A DNA stretch of 39,024 bases from sequence record KX689784; one strand, 5' to 3'. Positions within the stretch are counted from its first letter, which is position 1; each line of letters begins with the position of its first letter. A model generated the notes under the pieces. That model was not told the DNA's origin and ran no database searches. It worked only from the letters and a program-made list of their open reading frames with translations. The position numbers and the translations under genes were made by a program. Shown piece by piece: positions 783 to 33,885 of the stretch. Source of the stretch: Escherichia phage JSS1.

Positions 783-1325
783 TTACTTGTGGTTTCTATG
801 GGTCCTATCACGCTTAGGGGACCGTCGGTTTACTGCGTATTCCTTGTGCTTCTCAGTGCGTAAAGCATCAAGCCACACCTCTAGTTCCTCTATGGAATCT
901 GAGGTCTTCGTGAAGCACTTACCTTTTAGGCGCAACTGAGCGCGATACTTTCCGGTAGGCTTGAAAAAGCTGATACCTTTGGGTAGACCATTAGTATCGC
1001 CACCTCCTGAGTTCCATCGGTTCTCTAATGCTGTTACTAACCTGTAGTTATCCGGCCTGTCATCAAGTCTATCACCATTGATATGGTCAACCATCATGCC
1101 AGAAGGTATTCGACCAACGACTAGGCTGTAGATGATTCTGGCACGTCTATACCGACTGCCAAGAACCTTCACGATTGCGTACCCAGACGGATGAACTGAA
1201 TGTCCCATTACCTCACCGGGCTTCTTGCGAGATCCTTTATAAGGTTTCCTACACACCAACTCACCATCTACATAAGCATAGTGATTAAAGAGGGCCACCC
1301 TGTCGATGGCCTTCTGTTTACTCAT
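783..1325 (-). CDS. HNH homing endonuclease with AP2-like DNA-binding domain (180 aa)
   Basis: ATG at 1325 preceded by GGAGGAGGAG. HNH motif MVDHINGDRLDDRPDNYRLVT followed by an AP2-like segment GISFFKPTGKYRAQLRLKGKCFTKTSDSIEELEVW. Inserted between gene 19 and the phiOR promoter; not in T7. Confidence 0.8.
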   Translation of the reverse strand: MSKQKAIDRVALFNHYAYVDGELVCRKPYKGSRKKPGEVMGHSVHPSGYAIVKVLGSRYRRARIIYSLVVGRIPSGMMVDHINGDRLDDRPDNYRLVTALENRWNSGGGDTNGLPKGISFFKPTGKYRAQLRLKGKCFTKTSDSIEELEVWLDALRTEKHKEYAVNRRSPKRDRTHRNHK

Positions 1326-1341: not shown

Positions 1342-3102
1342 TTAGTGGAACGTAACGTATGACCCTAGTCCAAGCTCGTCCATATCGTGAGTTACCCGGA
1401 CCCCATTGTCCCAGAACTCAGTGTGGATGGACTCGAAGCCTTTCCGTGGGTTCTCCATCTGTTCCTCCAGCCACTCCTCAGTGACTTCACGTTCGCCTTT
1501 GTTGGCATCCTTAGCCATAGACTCAACGAAGAACTGTACACCGATAGCCAGCGCATCAAGTCGGTCATCGTGTGCCAAGGCTCCACGTTCACGAGAGATA
1601 CGGGTCATCTGATAGAAGAGAGAGTAGATAGGGTTACGAACACCATCCTTATCAGAGGCTGACTGGTAGTCTTGGACGATAGCAGCAGCGTTAACGATAA
1701 GTCGGTGAGACCCCATGATAGGCTCCAGAACGTCACAGATGCGGAGTTCTTTCTGACCCTTACTCTTCACTTCAGTTACAGCCGCAGGATGGATACGGGC
1801 CGCTACAGGCTTGAATAGCTCAAGGTACATGCCATCACCGAAGTTACCCTCAATGACGTATTCGTTGACCTTCCACTTACGACCAATCTTAGCCAAGGCT
1901 TCCAGCGTAGAGTCTTCATAACCACCACGCATGCCACCAACTTCCATAGCGAAGATGTAGCCGTTTAGCTGGTACAGTACCGCATAGCCAGTTTCATCCT
2001 TACCACGACCACTAGGGTCAATGACCAGAATCTTCTGGGTGTACGAGCTGAAGGCAGAACCTACAGTCTGATACGTGTGGTATGAATCACCCATGAGTCC
2101 AACGTTAGGAACGTCCTCACGCTTGTTCTGAGGGTTTGGCAACCATTGGTAGACCATTGGGCTGGACGCTGGGTCCAAGTCGGCTACGATAAGGTCACGG
2201 AGCTTTAGAGGGTACTTCTCAGCATCACTCAGGTTCGGGTTAAGCATGAACTGTAGAGCGAAGCCAGCCTTGCCATATGACAGCTCACGTTCCTTCAGGT
2301 CCGTATCATCGAAGCGTACTTCGTCGGTCGGACGCCAGTAGAATGACTCAGGGTCCTCTTCCAGCTCTGCCTGAAGCATAGGAGCCAGACGGTCGCCGTA
2401 AGACTGCCAGTCATTCTTATCGCGTGGATAACGAGCGGGCCAGATAGTAGTGGTATACCCACGACCTTCCAGCTCACGATACAGGGTCATCTCGTTCTGA
2501 GGAGTACCCAGATAGATGATTGTACCTCCCGGCTTCAGGATAGCGTCGAACTCTTTCACAAGCTCTGACAGACGGTCTCGTGCGGCCTGAGTCGCTGAGT
2601 TGTTCGGAACCTCTACGTCATCGGCAATCAGGATGTCAGCACGACTACCAGTCAACTGACCAGTGATACCAACAGACTTAACCGAAGGTGAGTGGTCTGG
2701 CTTGGCTGGCCCAACGTCGAAGCTAATAACCGCATCTCGCTGTCCCTGCTTAGGTTTGAGTTCCTGAAGCTGAGGCATGAGGTCGATGATTCGCTTGATG
2801 AATATGGAGTTAGCATCGGCTCGTTCTTTTGAGGCAGACACAATCATGAACTTCAAGTCTGGGTTGTTCCATAGTTTCCAGACCACGAATGCACACGTAA
2901 TGAAGGACTTCCCGATACCACGGAACGCCTGTAGGATGAAACGCCTGTTGTCCCCAGCCGATAGTTTCTTCGCCATGTCAATCTGACAGCGAGTCGGGAC
3001 TGGGAGTGACAGAGCTTTCCATAATACGAACAGGAAGAACACGAAGTCTGCCTTCATACGTGCTGTCATTAGCGCCTGACGCGCCACTAAGTCTTTACTC
3101 AA
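1342..3102 (-). CDS. 19: Terminase large subunit (T7 gp19 homolog, 586 aa)
   Basis: Strong similarity to T7 gp19 ([48 protein letters not shown]), same length as T7. Start codon is TTG at 3102 with AAGGAGGTG 5 nt upstream; it overlaps the gp18.5 TGA. Confidence 0.93.
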
Positions 3103-6432: not shown

Positions 6433-9400
6433 CCTTGATGTGGATGCCTTGCTCCTCAAACGTTCCAAGCAGCAACTTCTGGGTAATTGGGTCGTTCGGA
6501 ACCAGTTCACGGAACGTATTATACATCCCGGTCATGTAGTCACGCTCGTTGACACGAGTATCAGCCTTTAGGTAGCCAGCCAAGTTGTAAGCCGAAGCGC
6601 CAACGTTAGCAGCATATCCGAAAGCTGGAACCTGCTCCAAGAAGTTACCAACAATATTCATCACAGGGTCACTTGTAGACGCACCATATGTGAAAGCACG
6701 TTCAGGCTTCTCTGTAGGTGAACGAGGGAGGATAGACGAACGGAGCATCTTAGTGTCCTCATACCCAGCGATACCACCAAGAATGTTGGCGACTCCAAGT
6801 GGTCCACCCAGATGTGAACTACGGGACAGAGCCGCATAGCCAATCATCGTCGGGTCCAGAGCTTGCTTGAGGTATTCACGGTCTCGACCATCCTGCATAG
6901 CGTAAGCCTTGACGTGAGCTTGAGCCATGTAGTAGATACCAGACAGACCCATAGACATCACAGTAGACAGTGCAGCGTCCATCGCTCGGTTGTTCTTCGT
7001 GGCGTTATAGAAGGTTCGCATGGTTCGACCATTGATGGACTTGATGACGAAGTTCTTAAACTGAAGGACAGTCTTAGCGATAGGGCCATAAGCCTTGGCA
7101 TCCATGTTAGACAGCTTATAAGGTCGTAGTAACGTTTCATCAGCGATGGTGTCACCCATACGCCACAGGTCCATAGCCCTTGGATCCTGACTGAACGCCT
7201 TCTTATCCTTGATGGTGTACTTCCCGTCTGGACCACGAGTCACTGACTCACGGATTAGGGACTTAATGCCCTTCCACTGCTCGTCAGAGATACCAGCGGT
7301 CTTCAGCCAGCGGTCATCGAACCGACGCTTACTGCCAGTCAGACTATGCTCCACGATGTCAGACAGGAATCCCTGACGTCCAGCATCTAACAGGTAGTTG
7401 GTCGTACCGTTGAGGACTTTAGTGAACGGAGAGCGTACTGCAAGTTCACCAGTGTAATACTTGGCAGTCCCCAGAGCTGTAGCCGTACCACGACCGAGGT
7501 CACTGTAAGACCGCAGACGGTCGATGACATCCTGTTTAGACGGACGGATTGAGTCATCAAGTTCCTTACCGAAGAGAACATTGTGAAGGTCCTTAATCTC
7601 TGAGGCTCCTACCTTCTTGTTACGGAAGGCTAGGTCACGGAACATCGGGACTCCATGAAGCAGCGCACGAACGTTACCACGAGCCAGCATACCACCAATC
7701 TCCGTTAAGTTCTGAACACCCATGTAGGCATTCTTAGCGAAGAACGATAGGTCTGTCATTGTGCGCATCACGGTAGCGAAGGCTGCATCATCAGCACCAT
7801 CACGTCGAGCACGACCAGTGAGAATCTTCAAGGTGTCACGTAAGGTAGATACTTCACCTTTCAACTTACCGTCATCCCCAGCCTTGTTCATCATGGTCTC
7901 AACCAAGTCCTTCATGTCCTTCGTGGTTTTGCCTGTACCAGCCATGATAGCAATATCGCCATTAACTCGACGGTTGTAGGCCGGGACAATCTTGTCCATG
8001 TCCCACTCACGAAGGTTGTTGACACTGAAGGTCTGACCGTTAGGCAGGACGATTGACATATCACTATCGAACAGGTTACGAGCCTCAAGGAAGCTGTTGT
8101 TCTCCAGACCAACCAGACCGTTGATATTCTCTTCCATTACGGATGAGCGTTCGAACTTCTCGGTGTGAGAGATACCGTAAGCCTTATCGTTGGCGTACTT
8201 ATCGACAGCAGCCGCAAGTCCTTCTGGAGTCAACGTAGGGTCAGACTCTAAGAGTGCCTCGTCCACACGTTTCTTGACTTCAGGTCGAGACGCATAGCTG
8301 GTCAACCATGATTTCTTGATGGCCTCCTGTAGTGCCTCTGGACTTCCAAGCTCCTTGATGTACAGCTCCTTCATCTGGTTACTATACACATGCGGGACGT
8401 AGGTTCCCTTGAAGCGGCTACCAGGAAAGATAGACTGAGCGTCTGGACGACCAAACATCGCTGGGTTCTCCATCATCTCACGCTTGGCGTCGAACTGGTT
8501 CTTCAGCAGGTCATAGACTTTCAGTTCTCCCGGAGTCAGTTCAGCCTTCAGGTTTCCGCTACCATCTTCGATAGCCATAGACACACGCTGGTAGACGTCC
8601 TGACGGAATGCGCCAGAGTCTCGCCAGAATGCTGTCTGGAAGTACGGGTCCTTTAGTGCCTCAGTAACCGCATCGTCGATGTCGTTGTAGAACCGATGGT
8701 CCACAGCACGAAGTCTCTCGAATACGTCTGACGCAGTGGTCCCGATTTTACCTGAGGCACCGGACTGCATACCAGTCGGTGAACGCACTAAGTCCGCAGC
8801 GACTCCACGAATCTCAGGGTTCTCAGACCGAAGCAGCTTCAGGCCAATCTCAGTTAGCCCACCAAGGTTCACACCCGCAGCGGCACGTTCAGGCTCAATC
8901 ACTTCGTCAAAGACTTGACGTGTCTTAGGGTTCAGAAGGTTCTCACCAATCAGGATTGAACCATCTTCCAGTCGTACACTACCCGGCTCGTTCGGAACGT
9001 CAGCGAACTTAACGCCTTGATGACTAAAGGTCTGCTCACCTTCCTGAATAGGGAGACGAGACAGGTCCTGACCATCAACGTTACGAGCGGTCTCACGAGC
9101 TTCCAGACGTGTAGCTGGACCAGCAAACTCATTAGTGTTGCGACCTAAGGCTCTGCCTAAACCATCAGCGATAGCAGTCATACCGCCACCGAAGAGAGCA
9201 CCGCCAAGGATAGCCTCAGCCACATGAGCATCACCACCAGCCACTGAGGTACGGGCCATCTCCGACACACCAGCCAGTGCTCCAGATTGAGCAGCCACGG
9301 TGAACATCTTGTTGACCAGCTTACCGCCTTTACCAACCTGTCCAGCGATAGGAACGTAGGTCAGCGGGTCTACACCAGCACCAATCACACCAGCAGCTAA

Positions 9401-29198: not shown

Positions 29199-29647
29199 CA
29201 CTTAACTCCTTTCTTCTTGGGGATGAGTATACCAGAAGGCAGACGTACAGTCGCCTCTCTCAGCCACTCAACCGGGATAAACTTGTCGGCAAACTTAAAG
29301 CCGTTCTTTTCGCACCATGCGCCATACGTGGTCGGAGACCCTTTGTATAACTTGGAGCGGGAACTTGAGAACACGAACCGAATGTCTAACTCTGGGTGCT
29401 GTTCTCTAATCAATAGGTGCTTCTTGCGGTCTTCCACTGCGAAGATTCCTTTGGTCTCCACAATTATTCCGTTGGGCAGTACAAAGTCTGGACAATAACT
29501 GTGAAGAGATTCTGGTATTGTGTACTTGATGCTATACATCTCGTACTCAGCCTTAACTCCGTTCTTCTCCAGCCACTCTTGGTTCTTTGCTTCTAGTCCA
29601 GACCTATATATTCCTACTTGATGCCCTCGGCTAATCGTTCTTGCCAT
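29198..29647 (-). CDS. 3: Endonuclease I, Holliday junction resolvase (T7 gp3 homolog, 149 aa)
   Basis: PDF.LPNGI.VETKG...DRKKHLLIREQHPELDIR.VFSSSR.KLYKGSPT.YG matches T7 gp3. ATG at 29647 with GGAGACG RBS; the track start at 29698 is a TTG extension. Confidence 0.93.
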   Translation of the reverse strand: MARTISRGHQVGIYRSGLEAKNQEWLEKNGVKAEYEMYSIKYTIPESLHSYCPDFVLPNGIIVETKGIFAVEDRKKHLLIREQHPELDIRFVFSSSRSKLYKGSPTTYGAWCEKNGFKFADKFIPVEWLREATVRLPSGILIPKKKGVK

Positions 29648-30080
29648 TCTTGCGTCTCCAATTAATAGCTTGCGGAGTAACGCCAAACATCTTAGCAAGT
29701 TCTATAGGCCTCAGCTTGGACTTCAGGATAAACGCTACGTCTTCCTCGGTCAGCTTAGTCTTGTGATTAGCTTCTCCTTCGAATACTGGCGGTTTCGAGT
29801 GACGTCCCCGCTTCACGCAGTCCTGCATGTTGTCCTTCTGAGTCCCAACTTCAAGGTGCTCAGGGTTACAGCAGCAAGGGTTATCACATTTATGTCTAAC
29901 AACCAATCCATCAGGTATATGACCTTTGTACTCCCTGTACGAAACTCGGTGAGAATAGTCCTGTTTCTGATGACCTATAGCTATTTGACCATAACCAGTT
30001 TTAGTCCGGGAGCGTTGCCACTCCCAGCATCCCGAAGGAGAAACCTTAGAGTAAGCCTCCAGTTTCTCTTTCAGCGTCAT
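29631..30080 (-). CDS. HNH endonuclease (149 aa) inserted between SSB and endonuclease I
   Basis: HNH signature CWEW...GYGQ...HR.SY...GHIP.GLVVRHKCDNPCCCNPEHLEVGT. ATG 3 nt after the gene 2.5 stop (TAAATG), with no strong RBS of its own. Confidence 0.8.
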   Translation of the reverse strand: MTLKEKLEAYSKVSPSGCWEWQRSRTKTGYGQIAIGHQKQDYSHRVSYREYKGHIPDGLVVRHKCDNPCCCNPEHLEVGTQKDNMQDCVKRGRHSKPPVFEGEANHKTKLTEEDVAFILKSKLRPIELAKMFGVTPQAINWRRKNGKND

Positions 30081-30776
30081 TTAGAAGTCGTAGTCTCCTG
30101 CAGTATCTTCATCACCACCTTCGGAACCATCGTCGCCGAAGTCATCAGACCCGAAGTCACCATCGGTTGGCGCTTTGTAGCCAGTACCGAGGTCTTCATC
30201 ATCACCCCAGCCACCATCGCCACCAGCACCATCACCTTTCCACTCCTTCAGTTCTACCATAAGGCAGGACTCAAGCTGGAGCTTAATGCTTGCACCAGTC
30301 GCAGCGTTCCACTTGAACGGCAGGACTTTAAACTTGACCTTCAGCTTAGACCCTGAGCCAATATTCGGGACGTCACGGATGAGTTTAGCATCGGTGTCGT
30401 AGAACCGTAATACGATAGGCTCGGACTTGCCGTCTTTCAGGTAAGACGCGAAGCATTTAAACTTCAGGGTAACAGTACCGTCACCATTCTCAATCCACGG
30501 CATGTCGCCTTCTCGTGGTTCAATAGGCTTCTTGCCACGCTGAACCTGAGGCGGGTTCTTCTCGTGGTCTGCGAGTGCTTTCGCATATGCATCGTCGTGA
30601 ATCTTCTGTAAGACATCAATCATCTTACGGACCTTCGGGTTGCTCAGGTCGAATGTCAGGTTGACTTTATGTTCACCACGCTCGTTGAACTTGGTGTCTG
30701 CTTTGTTCAGCCATGCGTAAGGCTCAACGATACCAGCTACCGGAGTGGTGAAAGTCTTCAGTTGCTCTTTAGCCAT
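30081..30776 (-). CDS. 2.5: Single-stranded DNA-binding protein (T7 gp2.5 homolog, 231 aa)
   Basis: MAK...A.PYAW, NPP...RGKKP, GDMP...NGDGT, KLQLES and an acidic C-terminal tail ending DF as in T7 gp2.5. Confidence 0.95.
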   Translation of the reverse strand: MAKEQLKTFTTPVAGIVEPYAWLNKADTKFNERGEHKVNLTFDLSNPKVRKMIDVLQKIHDDAYAKALADHEKNPPQVQRGKKPIEPREGDMPWIENGDGTVTLKFKCFASYLKDGKSEPIVLRFYDTDAKLIRDVPNIGSGSKLKVKFKVLPFKWNAATGASIKLQLESCLMVELKEWKGDGAGGDGGWGDDEDLGTGYKAPTDGDFGSDDFGDDGSEGGDEDTAGDYDF

Positions 30777-31511: not shown

Positions 31512-31764
31512 TAACCACCTCCTTCACGAACTCAACGAACAGACGGACGCGTGGCCACTTTGTGTAGACCACAGGTACGTCGGTCTCACGCTTCTGGCGA
31601 GCCTCTTCAGCTTTACCCGGAGTAATCAGAGCGAAGACTGTAGGTGCCAGCTTAACGGCCTTCCCGAAGTAGCACAGCTTCTCGTTGCGCTTAATGCAAG
31701 CGAACGGGTTGTTGGACAGGTGGAAGGTATTGGAATAACGATTGAACATTAAGTTCTTAGACAT
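31504..31764 (-). CDS. 1.6: gp1.6-position protein (86 aa)
   Basis: Synteny; AAGGAGA RBS before ATG at 31764. Confidence 0.55.
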   Translation of the reverse strand: MSKNLMFNRYSNTFHLSNNPFACIKRNEKLCYFGKAVKLAPTVFALITPGKAEEARQKRETDVPVVYTKWPRVRLFVEFVKEVVNA

Positions 31765-31790
31765 AGAGTCTCCTTAGGTCGAAGTTATGG

Positions 31791-31813
31791 GTGTCCTATA
31801 GTGATATCTTAGG
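31791..31813 (-). promoter_or_regulatory. Variant phage promoter (phi1.5/1.6-like)
   Basis: Minus-strand CTAAGATATCACTATAGGACACC: consensus -8 to +2, changes at -12/-11. Confidence 0.5.
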
Positions 31814-31846
31814 GTCTAGCTGGTGGCCCAGACGATAGCTTTCTAG

Positions 31847-31886
31847 CATAAGCAAAGAAACCCAGCAGTCCGAAGACCACTGGGTT
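31847..31886 (-). terminator. Intrinsic terminator (T7 early terminator TE equivalent)
   Basis: Minus-strand RNA AACCCAGUGGUC-UUCG-GACUGCUGGGUU then UCUUUGCUU: 12 bp stem with two G-U pairs, UUCG tetraloop, U-rich tail. Downstream of ligase and the HNH insertion. Confidence 0.7.
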
Positions 31887-31890
31887 GACG

Positions 31891-32352
31891 TTATAATGAA
31901 TCTCTTAAGGCTACCGCCTCGGCTATGGTAGCGAACGTACCGTATGACTTACGCTTTATCCTCAGTTGCCAGCGACCAGTCCTTGGCTCAAAGTTAATAT
32001 ACTTCTCGCCAGACTTGCAGTGGCTACGGACGGCGACGTTCGTCAGGTTCACTGCCTGAGTCACACACCTTAGGTTCTCAATGCGGTTATCAGAAGGGTC
32101 TCTGTTTATATGGTCAATAACCATTCCTTCCGGTATCGGACCGTGAGTTAGCTCCCAGACTACCCGGTGGGCAAGGAGTTGACCCTTGGTTGTGTTTATA
32201 ATCCAGTAGCCGTCCTTGCGTCGATAACCTAAGTGTTTACCCTTCAGGTTGGAGACTCCCGAAGGAGCCGTCCGGTCAACCTTAAATCTTGACTGTAGGA
32301 TTGTCCTCAGTCCCTCGCCACTGGTCGAATGACGGATGTCGCAAACTTCCAT
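31891..32352 (-). CDS. HNH homing endonuclease with AP2-like domain (153 aa) inserted after the ligase gene
   Basis: HNH motif MVIDHINRDPSDNRIENLRCVTQAVN and AP2-like KYINFEPRTGRWQLRIKRKSYGTFATIAEAVALRD; paralogous to the ORF at 783-1325. ATG at 32352 with GGAGGAGA RBS. Overlaps the ligase 3' end by about 70 nt; the track ORF extends further upstream. Confidence 0.75.
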   Translation of the reverse strand: MEVCDIRHSTSGEGLRTILQSRFKVDRTAPSGVSNLKGKHLGYRRKDGYWIINTTKGQLLAHRVVWELTHGPIPEGMVIDHINRDPSDNRIENLRCVTQAVNLTNVAVRSHCKSGEKYINFEPRTGRWQLRIKRKSYGTFATIAEAVALRDSL

Positions 32353-33304
32353 CTGGTGTCTCCTCCATGTAGGTAATCTGACAGGCCCACCCTTTGTAGT
32401 AATCTGGGTCTGACTTGACGTTCTCTGTGAACTCGGACATAAGGGCGCGACTAATGTTAGTTGCGGAGACCTCCATCCCGTTCTCAAGCATAACGTCAAA
32501 CCCAATGACCAGACCTTCGTTGGCTAAACCTTCCGTTCCCCACACCGGACGAACAACGTGACCATCTGCCTCTTCGCTTGGCTTCATTTTCCACATGCCT
32601 GACTTCTTGCCACGCTTGTATTTACCCAGCGGGTCCTTGACTACCAGACCCTCGTGTCCTTCCAGACGCTTCTGTTCGTACAGGGAGTTGAGCGACTCAA
32701 GGTCATAGACCGTGTGCGACTCAGACAGAACCCAGTCGATTTCCGGGAAGTATTTCTGGAGGAGAGGGACGATAGCTTCGGCCTTCAGGCGTGTGACGCT
32801 GTGGATAGGACCTTCTGCTTTCGGGTCAGCAATGGTTGTCATGTCGACAATACCGTAAACCACAACCTTAAGTCGTGACCGGGCGACCCAGAACGGGACC
32901 TTCTTGCCACGGCCCGAATAGCATTCAGCGAACTCCTCGTTGTTAGGCTTGAGCCACTTGGTTCGAATGAGACCTGAGGACGTATTAAAGTCAACACCTT
33001 TGACCATGACCTCGCCATCAATCATTAGGCCGATACCTTCATAGCCAGCTTGACGAAGGAACCACCTCCAGTCAGCCTGAGTCCACGCATTGCCTAACTC
33101 AGAGTTCATCCACTCAAGTGCTGGTAGTGGTTTAGACTCACGGCTTAACCAATAAGTCTCACCCTCTCGCAGCACCGGAAGGTTCAACCGCACACCGTCA
33201 TACTTCACTTCAGCTTCCAGCGACCCTGCTACTGCCAGTGCTTTCGTAACGCCTGACTCAGAGTAATCTACAGCGCGGTGCGGGTTGGTTTTGATAGTTG
33301 TCAT
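32282..33304 (-). CDS. 1.3: ATP-dependent DNA ligase (T7 gp1.3 homolog, 340 aa)
   Basis: IKTNP..AV, adenylation motif EVKYDGVR, YWLSR.SK..PALE, GEVMVKGVDFN.SSGL.RTKW, EGHEGLVVKDP, KRGKKSG.WKMKP, WACQITYMEETPDGSLRHPSF.QWRGTEDNP. Confidence 0.96.
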   Translation of the reverse strand: MTTIKTNPHRAVDYSESGVTKALAVAGSLEAEVKYDGVRLNLPVLREGETYWLSRESKPLPALEWMNSELGNAWTQADWRWFLRQAGYEGIGLMIDGEVMVKGVDFNTSSGLIRTKWLKPNNEEFAECYSGRGKKVPFWVARSRLKVVVYGIVDMTTIADPKAEGPIHSVTRLKAEAIVPLLQKYFPEIDWVLSESHTVYDLESLNSLYEQKRLEGHEGLVVKDPLGKYKRGKKSGMWKMKPSEEADGHVVRPVWGTEGLANEGLVIGFDVMLENGMEVSATNISRALMSEFTENVKSDPDYYKGWACQITYMEETPDGSLRHPSFDQWRGTEDNPTVKI

Positions 33305-33863: not shown

Positions 33864-33885
33864 AATCCTATAGTGATAGTTTAGG
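33863..33885 (-). promoter_or_regulatory. Phage RNAP promoter (phi1.1-like), consensus class
   Basis: Minus-strand AGCCTAAACTATCACTATAGGATTAG. Confidence 0.75.

Follow-up and report, generated by a model that had tools for sequence, protein, structure and literature searches.

A predicted HNH homing endonuclease gene that appears to borrow its translation start from the overlapping DNA ligase gene of a Kayfunavirus

The ligase gene of Escherichia phage JSS1 (KX689784) is entered near its 3′ end, in another frame, by a second open reading frame, and the question that this locus raises is how a gene comes to start inside the coding sequence of its neighbour, how long it has been there and whether its product acts for itself or for the phage. 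The window, by which we mean the whole stretch of 39,024 nucleotides analysed here, matches Escherichia phage PE3-1 (NC_024379 / KJ748011; Kayfunavirus, Studiervirinae) from position 31700 to 32700 end to end at 99.9% identity, the two sequences being oppositely oriented; where we write PE3-1 below, the sequence of the window is meant, and the genes discussed all lie on its minus strand (Table 1). An earlier reading of the sequence alone (the sequence-only reading) had placed an open reading frame at 31891-32352, starting in another frame about 70 nt before the end of the ligase gene and preceded by a ribosome-binding site (RBS). These points are borne out on the minus strand, with a start 71 nt inside the ligase gene in the +1 frame and the sequence GGAGGAGA at 32366-32359, 6 nt upstream of the start codon.

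Table 1. Features of the ligase-HNH locus, in positions of the window
Feature	Position	Strand	Basis or detail
HNH endonuclease CDS, 153 aa, phiYeO3-12 gp1.45 ortholog	31891..32352	-	ATG 32352-32350, TAA 31893-31891
Shine-Dalgarno GGAGGAGA, 6 nt before HNH ATG	32359..32366	-	read from sequence
HNH/ligase overlap, 71 nt, HNH codons 1-23, +1 frame	32282..32352	-	dN/dS, pLDDT, homology start
ATP-dependent DNA ligase gene, gp1.3, 340 aa	32282..33304	-	Pfam DNA_ligase_A_M and DNA_ligase_C
Inserted cassette, 391 nt	31891..32281	-	alignment against empty sites of K1F and ZCEC02
HNH_3 catalytic domain (predicted), residues 60-102	32047..32175	-	Pfam match, invariant residues, AF2 model
AP2-like C-terminal DNA-binding domain (putative), about residues 114-152	31897..32013	-	alignment to homologues, predicted topology
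Early terminator, K1F type: 12-bp stem, UUCG loop, U-rich tail	31850..31886	-	folding
Phage RNA polymerase promoter, phi1.6-type, ...TATCACTATAGGACA	31791..31813	-	pattern search; aligned CR44b promoter annotation
Nearest upstream phage promoter core	33866..33876	-	pattern search
Small hairpin GGCUCC-UUCG-GGAGUC (GGCUCCUUCGGGAGUC) within HNH gene, codes A-P-S-G-V	32254..32269	-	counterpart of phiYeO3-12 'putative TE'

The 153-aa product matches the Pfam family HNH_3 (PF13392) over residues 60-102 (E 1.5e-22, 79.4 bits for a cut-off of 24.8) and PHROG 99, 'HNH endonuclease', over residues 35-152 (E 1.2e-42). His62, Arg63, Asp80, His81, Asn102 and Asn105, invariant in a 19-sequence alignment, are all kept in it, in a beta-beta-alpha-metal motif. 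The best PDB match of an AlphaFold2 (AF2) model built on 19 sequences (mean pLDDT 85) is I-HmuI, a nicking enzyme of Bacillus phage SPO1 (1u3e; prob 1.00, E 1.4e-3, rmsd 3.1, 34% identity over 92 columns), and the match covers the N-terminal sheet together with the beta-beta-alpha-metal HNH core. The protein is, on these predictions, an I-HmuI-like endonuclease of the HNH_3 type. I-HmuI is intron-encoded and the C-terminal DNA-binding part of its published structure is helical, whereas the window protein is free-standing and has a predicted AP2-like beta3-alpha tail in place of the helical part.

The name 'AP2-HNH endonuclease' that the sequence-only reading had given to the gene holds for the HNH part and has to be amended for the rest: the order is HNH and then AP2-like, and the AP2 part lies below the Pfam threshold. 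A search of the 153-aa protein with Pfam AP2 (PF00847) returned no match, even at E <= 10. Many homologues carry both PF00847 and PF13392, with the AP2 match C-terminal to HNH_3 in P0022, P0056, P0066 and others, at 39.3 bits in P0022 (cut-off 33.3) and 35.1 bits in P0056, and residues ~114-152 of our protein align column for column with the PF00847 regions of the three homologues named. The same stretch of the AF2 model shows three strands followed by a helix (E119-122, E127-132, E135-140, H143-152). Fold matches to AP2 structures are weak (WRINKLED1 7wq5, E 0.8-3; PfAP2 3igm, E 4.2). Since the protein has no Pfam AP2 match and the assignment is based on homologues and topology, we name the tail 'AP2-like' only. 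The architecture is thus HNH_3 followed by an AP2-like tail, the latter being supported indirectly.

The closest described system is gene 1.45 of Yersinia phage phiYeO3-12 ('HNH endonuclease', NP_052076; AJ251805 / NC_001271), whose product shares 67% amino-acid identity over residues 1-152, that is over the full length, as well as the order of HNH and then AP2-like parts. In that genome gene 1.45 lies at 7903..8376 and the ligase gene 1.3 at 6933..7973, which gives a 71-nt overlap and a start position identical to that in PE3-1. The arrangement is therefore already known, the phiYeO3-12 gene having been annotated with its 71-nt ligase overlap since 2001.

In order to delimit the inserted DNA, we aligned at the DNA level eight Kayfunavirus loci with the HNH gene and three without it (K1F, ZCEC02 and CR44b). 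At the empty sites of K1F and ZCEC02 the ligase TAA is followed by CTAAA (5 nt), by CGTC (TGTC in K1F) and by the stem of a terminator; at the occupied loci the ligase TAA is followed by a 391-nt cassette that ends in the HNH stop, and then by CGTC and the terminator stem as at the empty sites. The boundaries of the cassette are identical in the eight occupied loci when set against the two clean empty ones, the third being scarred. Since the cassette starts on the base that immediately follows the ligase stop, it was inserted behind the ligase gene and not within it. The statement that the ligase reading frame had been kept intact is confirmed by an alignment of the ligase C-terminus, in which the last 29 residues are identical to those of the HNH-less ZCEC02 and of the IMG/VR locus L018. 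In at least four genera the HNH gene directly abuts the stop of the ligase gene. The locus of CR44b retains a 3′ scar, in which the final ~25 nt of the HNH frame stand immediately behind the ligase gene (24 of 25 nt match CLB_P1), and this deletion scar indicates that the cassette has been lost and not only gained. A group of Salmonella phages has a scar like that of CR44b, as judged by two-piece matches.

If the cassette begins after the ligase stop, the signals that start its translation lie in DNA of the ligase. The RBS and the ATG both arise from ligase codons, ATG-GAG-GAG-ACA-CCA-GAT-GG (Y-M-E-E-T-P-D-G), the first four of which (Met-Glu-Glu-Thr, ATG GAG GAG ACA) produce GGAGGAGA. An ATG or GTG is found at the identical ligase position, behind a GGAGG-type sequence and 71 nt before the ligase end, in 14 of 14 non-duplicate loci with the HNH gene, GTG replacing ATG in the EFA-1/PH1061/Zappy/CHRF_30111 group. 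The RBS and ATG of these ligase codons are present also in the HNH-less phages K1F, ZCEC02 and T7. The open reading frame that the ATG opens in HNH-less phages runs for 9-28 codons, with 24 or 28 in Kayfunavirus loci of the YMEETP allele and about 9 in T7, the latter by reading of the T7 sequence. The 71-nt overlap exists because the HNH reading frame reads back to an RBS and an ATG that were already there in conserved ligase codons. The comparison of loci indicates that the cassette is without start signals of its own and appears to borrow the pre-existing ones of the ligase.

The conservation of the start codon itself is a weaker argument. A start codon at the ligase position is found in 14/14 loci with the HNH gene and in about 17/23 loci without it (~75% ATG, the rest ACG from the Asp codon GAC), and these loci are phylogenetically related; the ATG is frequent in HNH-less loci, at about 75%, since GAT is the usual Asp codon there. 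The contrast between the two groups goes in the right direction and is too weak, and too much confounded by this relatedness, to prove selection for the start.

An improbable alternative is that the true start lies downstream of the ligase stop and that there is no overlap. Downstream starts have indeed been chosen by annotators and gene callers, giving products of 118 aa in CLB_P1, 126 aa in PH1061 and 77 aa in PE3-1, vB_EclP_26 and CHRF_30111; the core homology to homologues outside the T7 group starts near the ligase stop, and P0012 (locus L043), a related variant, is provided with a separate start that lies 5 nt beyond the ligase stop, so that the family can work without the overlap. In PE3-1, however, the HNH frame is devoid of further ATG, GTG or TTG codons from 32352 down to the ATG at 32124, and the ATGs used in CLB_P1 and PH1061 are single-phage substitutions that are missing from the other seven Kayfunavirus copies. 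With the ATG at 32124 as start, the product would begin 'MVIDH' and be without the invariant His62-Arg63 pair and the N-terminal sheet of the I-HmuI-like fold, and an AGGA touches this ATG with zero spacer. A further variant, P0010, is called with a 23-nt overlap, and its 71-nt ATG is also open. We therefore keep the start within the ligase gene as the preferred one.

The stretch shared by the two genes is read very differently in the two frames. Over the 69 nt compared, the ligase frame has a dN/dS of about 0.07, as against about 1.9 for the HNH frame. Residues 1-11 have a pLDDT below 50 in the AF2 model, and homology with HNH proteins of unrelated phages outside the T7 group sets in at about residue 26-35, which corresponds to the end of the ligase gene. 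The first ~23 residues thus appear to be a passenger leader, unconstrained in the HNH frame and with a sequence dictated by the ligase.

One could also imagine that ribosomes shift frame by +1 in a programmed manner near the end of the ligase gene and so add the HNH domain to the ligase as a fusion; the HNH frame of PE3-1 stays open over 210 codons, from stop to stop, and extends deep into the ligase gene. The open stretch measures only 174-182 codons in the other copies and is thus not conserved upstream, no frameshift signal was identified, and a strong RBS and an ATG that are conserved in position account for expression more simply. For these reasons the fusion was rejected, its probability being close to nil.

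The 3′ end of the gene is followed by a hairpin at 31886-31859 that consists of a 12-bp stem and a UUCG loop and runs into UCUUUGCUU (-22 kcal/mol, z = -4.7; 0 of 200 shuffles fold as well). The sequence-only reading had the gene ending 5 nt before a TE-like terminator; the hairpin is a strong one, and the distance from the HNH stop to the first base of its stem is 4 nt and not 5. The same hairpin stands 9 nt after the ligase stop in the HNH-less K1F and ZCEC02. A pattern search for phage promoters gave 10 matches where 0.75 were expected, with minus-strand cores at 33866-33876 and 31794-31804; the second belongs to the phi1.6-type promoter, which is downstream of the terminator and ahead of gene 1.6 (ATG 31764). 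The search found no promoter between the core ending at 33876 and the HNH gene, nor any between the two cores, so that ligase and HNH genes are presumably co-transcribed. From this pattern the ligase transcription unit is predicted to end with the HNH gene, the terminator lying downstream of it. In T7 the early transcript made by the host polymerase ends at TE, and by analogy the HNH gene may also be the last one in the host-polymerase early transcript that ends there.

The position of the terminator differs between PE3-1 and phiYeO3-12. The cassette of phiYeO3-12 reaches and overlaps the phi1.5 promoter, whereas that of PE3-1 lies upstream of an intact K1F-type terminator, and the sole candidate for an early terminator in phiYeO3-12 is a small hairpin inside the gene, which is annotated as TE. 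Its counterpart in PE3-1, GGCUCCUUCGGGAGUC, was considered as a terminator and rejected, as no U-run follows it and its z is -1.5; the sequence of this hairpin is largely forced because the codons for A-P-S-G-V are conserved.

The distribution of the gene speaks against the view, taken in the sequence-only reading, that the overlap reflects a recent insertion. A tblastn search over 50,697 phage records gave about 36 records with a copy at 60% identity or more, and in every row inspected the match lay over or beside an annotated DNA ligase. The carriers belong to Kayfunavirus, Teetrevirus (phiYeO3-12, Patroon), Przondovirus (KP32) and Teseptimavirus (Ebrios), among others; across genera the copies are 58-67% identical in amino acids and share the start position 71 nt before the ligase end, and the RefSeq annotation of Ebrios has the 71-nt ligase overlap too. 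Within Kayfunavirus synonymous divergence reaches dS 0.8-1.2. A recent insertion is untenable because the same gene, with the same start, is found in four genera at an identity of only 58-67% and dS within a single genus rises to such values.

Homing genes commonly degenerate after fixation, and an old copy could have become a pseudogene, decaying or unexpressed. Deletion has removed the gene from some lineages, with scars of the CR44b type, and many records leave it unannotated, both of which would fit decay. Against it, the reading frame is intact at exactly 153 codons in 9 of 9 Kayfunavirus copies despite dS of up to 1.2, all the invariant catalytic and structural residues are kept, and the structural model is a confident one. 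In the gene body (codons 25-153) dN/dS between Kayfunavirus copies is 0.06-0.11 (Nei-Gojobori), a sign of purifying selection and hence of a gene that is not a pseudogene. These comparisons strongly suggest that the HNH gene is intact and under purifying selection, and leave the pseudogene as a very improbable explanation.

The gene is not alone in the window. The sequence-only reading had counted three HNH genes, and those at 783..1325 and 29631..30080 match HNH_3 as well (1.8e-14 and 7.8e-15). It had also stated that T7 has no HNH gene at the three sites, which is right for the ligase site, where T7 has TE and then gene 1.4, and wrong for the site of the 29631 gene, where T7 has gp2.8. The product of the 29631 frame is 42% identical to T7 gp2.8 ('endonuclease'; E 4e-35), both genes start on the base after the gp2.5 stop, and this gp2.8 ortholog is about 33% identical over 67 residues to the protein at the ligase site. 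T7 gp2.8, like other free-standing HNH genes of T7-like phages, resembles the latter in being of the HNH_3 family and in standing flush against the stop of a conserved replication gene, and differs from it in its site (after gp2.5) and in having an ATG of its own with no overlap.

An HNH cassette that comes and goes has been observed experimentally in Hafnia phage Ca, also a Kayfunavirus, where about 397 bp are present or absent within one stock and where the HNH gene overlaps its neighbours, the ATG of the large terminase being upstream of its stop (PMC8861465). That cassette sits at the lysis/terminase junction and encodes a different protein, unlike the gene at the ligase site.

Taking the evidence together, we propose that the locus holds a free-standing HNH homing endonuclease gene with an AP2-like tail, the Kayfunavirus ortholog of phiYeO3-12 1.45, which is started by a borrowed ligase RBS and ATG and is the last gene of the early/ligase unit. 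We consider this reading, in which homing is inferred, likely to be correct. Free-standing phage genes for HNH and GIY-YIG homing enzymes adjoin conserved genes that bear their targets and spread by break repair, the seg and mob genes of T4 and I-HmuI being the reference cases. In the mechanism that we envisage, translation would start at the ATG at 32352 by means of GGAGGAGA, both being by-products of the ligase codons Met-Glu-Glu-Thr-Pro-Asp-Gly, and the conserved portion of the endonuclease would begin where the ligase ends. On co-infection with an HNH-less relative the enzyme would nick or cut the DNA of that relative near the ligase-terminator junction, and recombinational repair would then copy the cassette, with flanking ligase sequence, into the genome of the relative. 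A functional study, or expression or cleavage data, for enzymes of the gp1.45 type was not found in the searchable literature, outside which the phiYeO3-12 genome paper lies.

Copying of flanking sequence might be expected to leave its mark on the ligase gene. The phages with the HNH gene that were sampled carry the ligase 3′ allele 'YMEETP(D/S)G', with a close variant 'FMEVTPNG' in the loci of the P0010 type (L041/L042), and the alternative allele 'FMERFPDG', which is without GGAGG, was never seen together with the HNH gene in the sample. The 'YMEETP' allele occurs in HNH-less phages too, and there is a phylogenetic bias in the sample. Sliding-window identity shows the ligase gene to be strongly mosaic in phages with and without the HNH gene alike, and because the HNH-less phages show it too, the mosaic signal is not specific for co-conversion. 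The mosaic and the pattern of alleles are compatible with co-conversion.

The same alleles allow a further conjecture, to which we give little credence. The cassette may depend on the cryptic RBS and ATG of the ligase segment Y-M-E-E-T-P-D-G, or be selected to land behind them, and F-M-E-R-F-P-D-G would then be an escape allele. If this were true, expression of the cassette would be hard-wired to a sequence that the phage cannot easily change, and the F-M-E-R-F-P-D-G allele would abolish cleavage by, or expression of, an incoming cassette.

The strong purifying selection and the long retention at one site in several genera could also mean that the nuclease has been domesticated and is not purely selfish, serving the phage in competition with co-infecting relatives, in the breakdown of host DNA or in the evasion of defence. 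The gene is transcribed with the early replication genes, and the paper on SegB reportedly provides a published example of a phage homing nuclease with a side benefit. Close relatives differ, however, in the presence or absence of the gene, and the many Kayfunaviruses that are without it argue against an essential role. We consider domestication unlikely, and retain the homing endonuclease gene as the reading that best fits the locus.

The annotation of the gene is uneven. The 77-aa model, starting at the ATG at 32124, stands in the records of PE3-1, vB_EclP_26 and CHRF_30111, three records of relatives leave the HNH gene unannotated, and the record of CLB_P1 labels its copy 'similar to phiYeO3-12 gp1.45'. 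The start within the ligase gene is one that gene callers avoid, and the practical value of the present analysis is a corrected gene model for PE3-1, whose RefSeq entry has a 77-aa 'hypothetical protein', and for several relatives. The biological interest is low in so far as T7-like phages commonly carry free-standing HNH homing genes. At the ligase locus, occupied, empty-site and scarred relatives are all to hand, and nature offers here a clear case of a mobile cassette whose start signals would be borrowed from the coding sequence of its neighbour.

The sequence-only reading had T7 without an HNH gene at all three of the sites occupied in the window, a claim that fails at 29631. T7 does carry an HNH gene at this site, since gp2.8 matches the ORF adjoining gp2.5 (42% identity, E 4e-35) and holds the same flush position in T7 as that ORF does in the window, where its first base is the base immediately 3' of the gp2.5 stop codon. 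The large terminase gene (1342-3102) is closely followed downstream by the third HNH_3 ORF, after which comes a phage-promoter-like sequence, TCACTATAGGG, at 750-760.

Features of the HNH genes and of the ligase locus (window coordinates unless a phage locus is named)
Feature	Position	Strand	Remark
Third HNH_3 ORF, 180 aa	783-1325	-	HNH_3 match, E 1.8e-14
Second HNH_3 ORF	29631-30080	-	adjoins gp2.5 (30081-30776)
Annotated 'hypothetical protein gp1.4', 77 aa, start MVIDH	31891-32124; NC_024379 7711-7944	-	PE3-1 RefSeq record
Hairpin GGCUCC-UUCG-GGAGUC	32254-32269; L013 (compared phage locus) 1284-1299	-	encodes A-P-S-G-V of the HNH protein
Deletion scar of the HNH cassette	L003 (Citrobacter phage CR44b) 1920-1955		directly 3' of the ligase stop codon

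At the ligase site, the HNH gene is annotated only as the 77-aa product in the PE3-1 RefSeq record and likewise in those of vB_EclP_26 and CHRF_30111, and it is absent from the annotation of phiHAO1-1, EFA-1 and Zappy. These short and missing annotations are gene-model errors that stem from the overlap of the gene's start with the ligase gene. The hairpin inside the gene aligns with the TE hairpin of T3 and T7 (GGCUCACCUUCGGGUGGGCC), a likeness that may be functional or may be a coincidence of codons, and its counterpart in the phiYeO3-12 record is a 'putative TE' inside gene 1.45. Among the HNH+ lineages compared the stem is preserved and the loop is variable, with a weakened stem in Zappy; in PE3-1 the hairpin is not followed by a U-run and reaches a z of only -1.5.

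Downstream of the terminator, the window has an A at 31807 where NC_024379 and all relatives have a C. This position, the sole mismatch to NC_024379 across the 1-kb region, falls in the upstream part of a phi1.6-type promoter (CTAAGaTATCACTATAGG). In Enterobacter phage vB_EclP_26 the interval from the terminator to the promoter of gene 1.6 contains an additional segment of ~100 nt (~2330-2500 of its locus, L006), which the other Kayfunavirus loci lack.

The ~36 nt retained after the ligase gene of CR44b are what a deletion of the cassette left behind: they include the 3'-terminal 25 nt of the HNH reading frame, identical to CLB_P1 at 24 of 25 positions. Several Salmonella phages (ST56, ST10, CHRF_10022 type) likewise match in two pieces.

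The ligase gene itself is a patchwork in which blocks of 44-60% and 95-100% identity alternate between phages. Over its last ~300 nt there are at least two divergent allelic forms among the IMG/VR Kayfunavirus loci (L020-L037), one reading ...YMEETPDG...DQWRGTEDNPTVKI and the other ...FMERFPDG...KCWRGTEDNPTVKS, and the HNH gene is seen only alongside the former. The Kayfunavirus contig IMGVR_UViG_3300045988_000160 (L025) carries at ~2470-2950 a 160-aa HNH ORF with the same site and start position as in PE3-1. Across most of its length the PE3-1 cassette shares only 32-68% DNA identity with this contig, so the ORF may represent a second HNH allele at the ligase locus.
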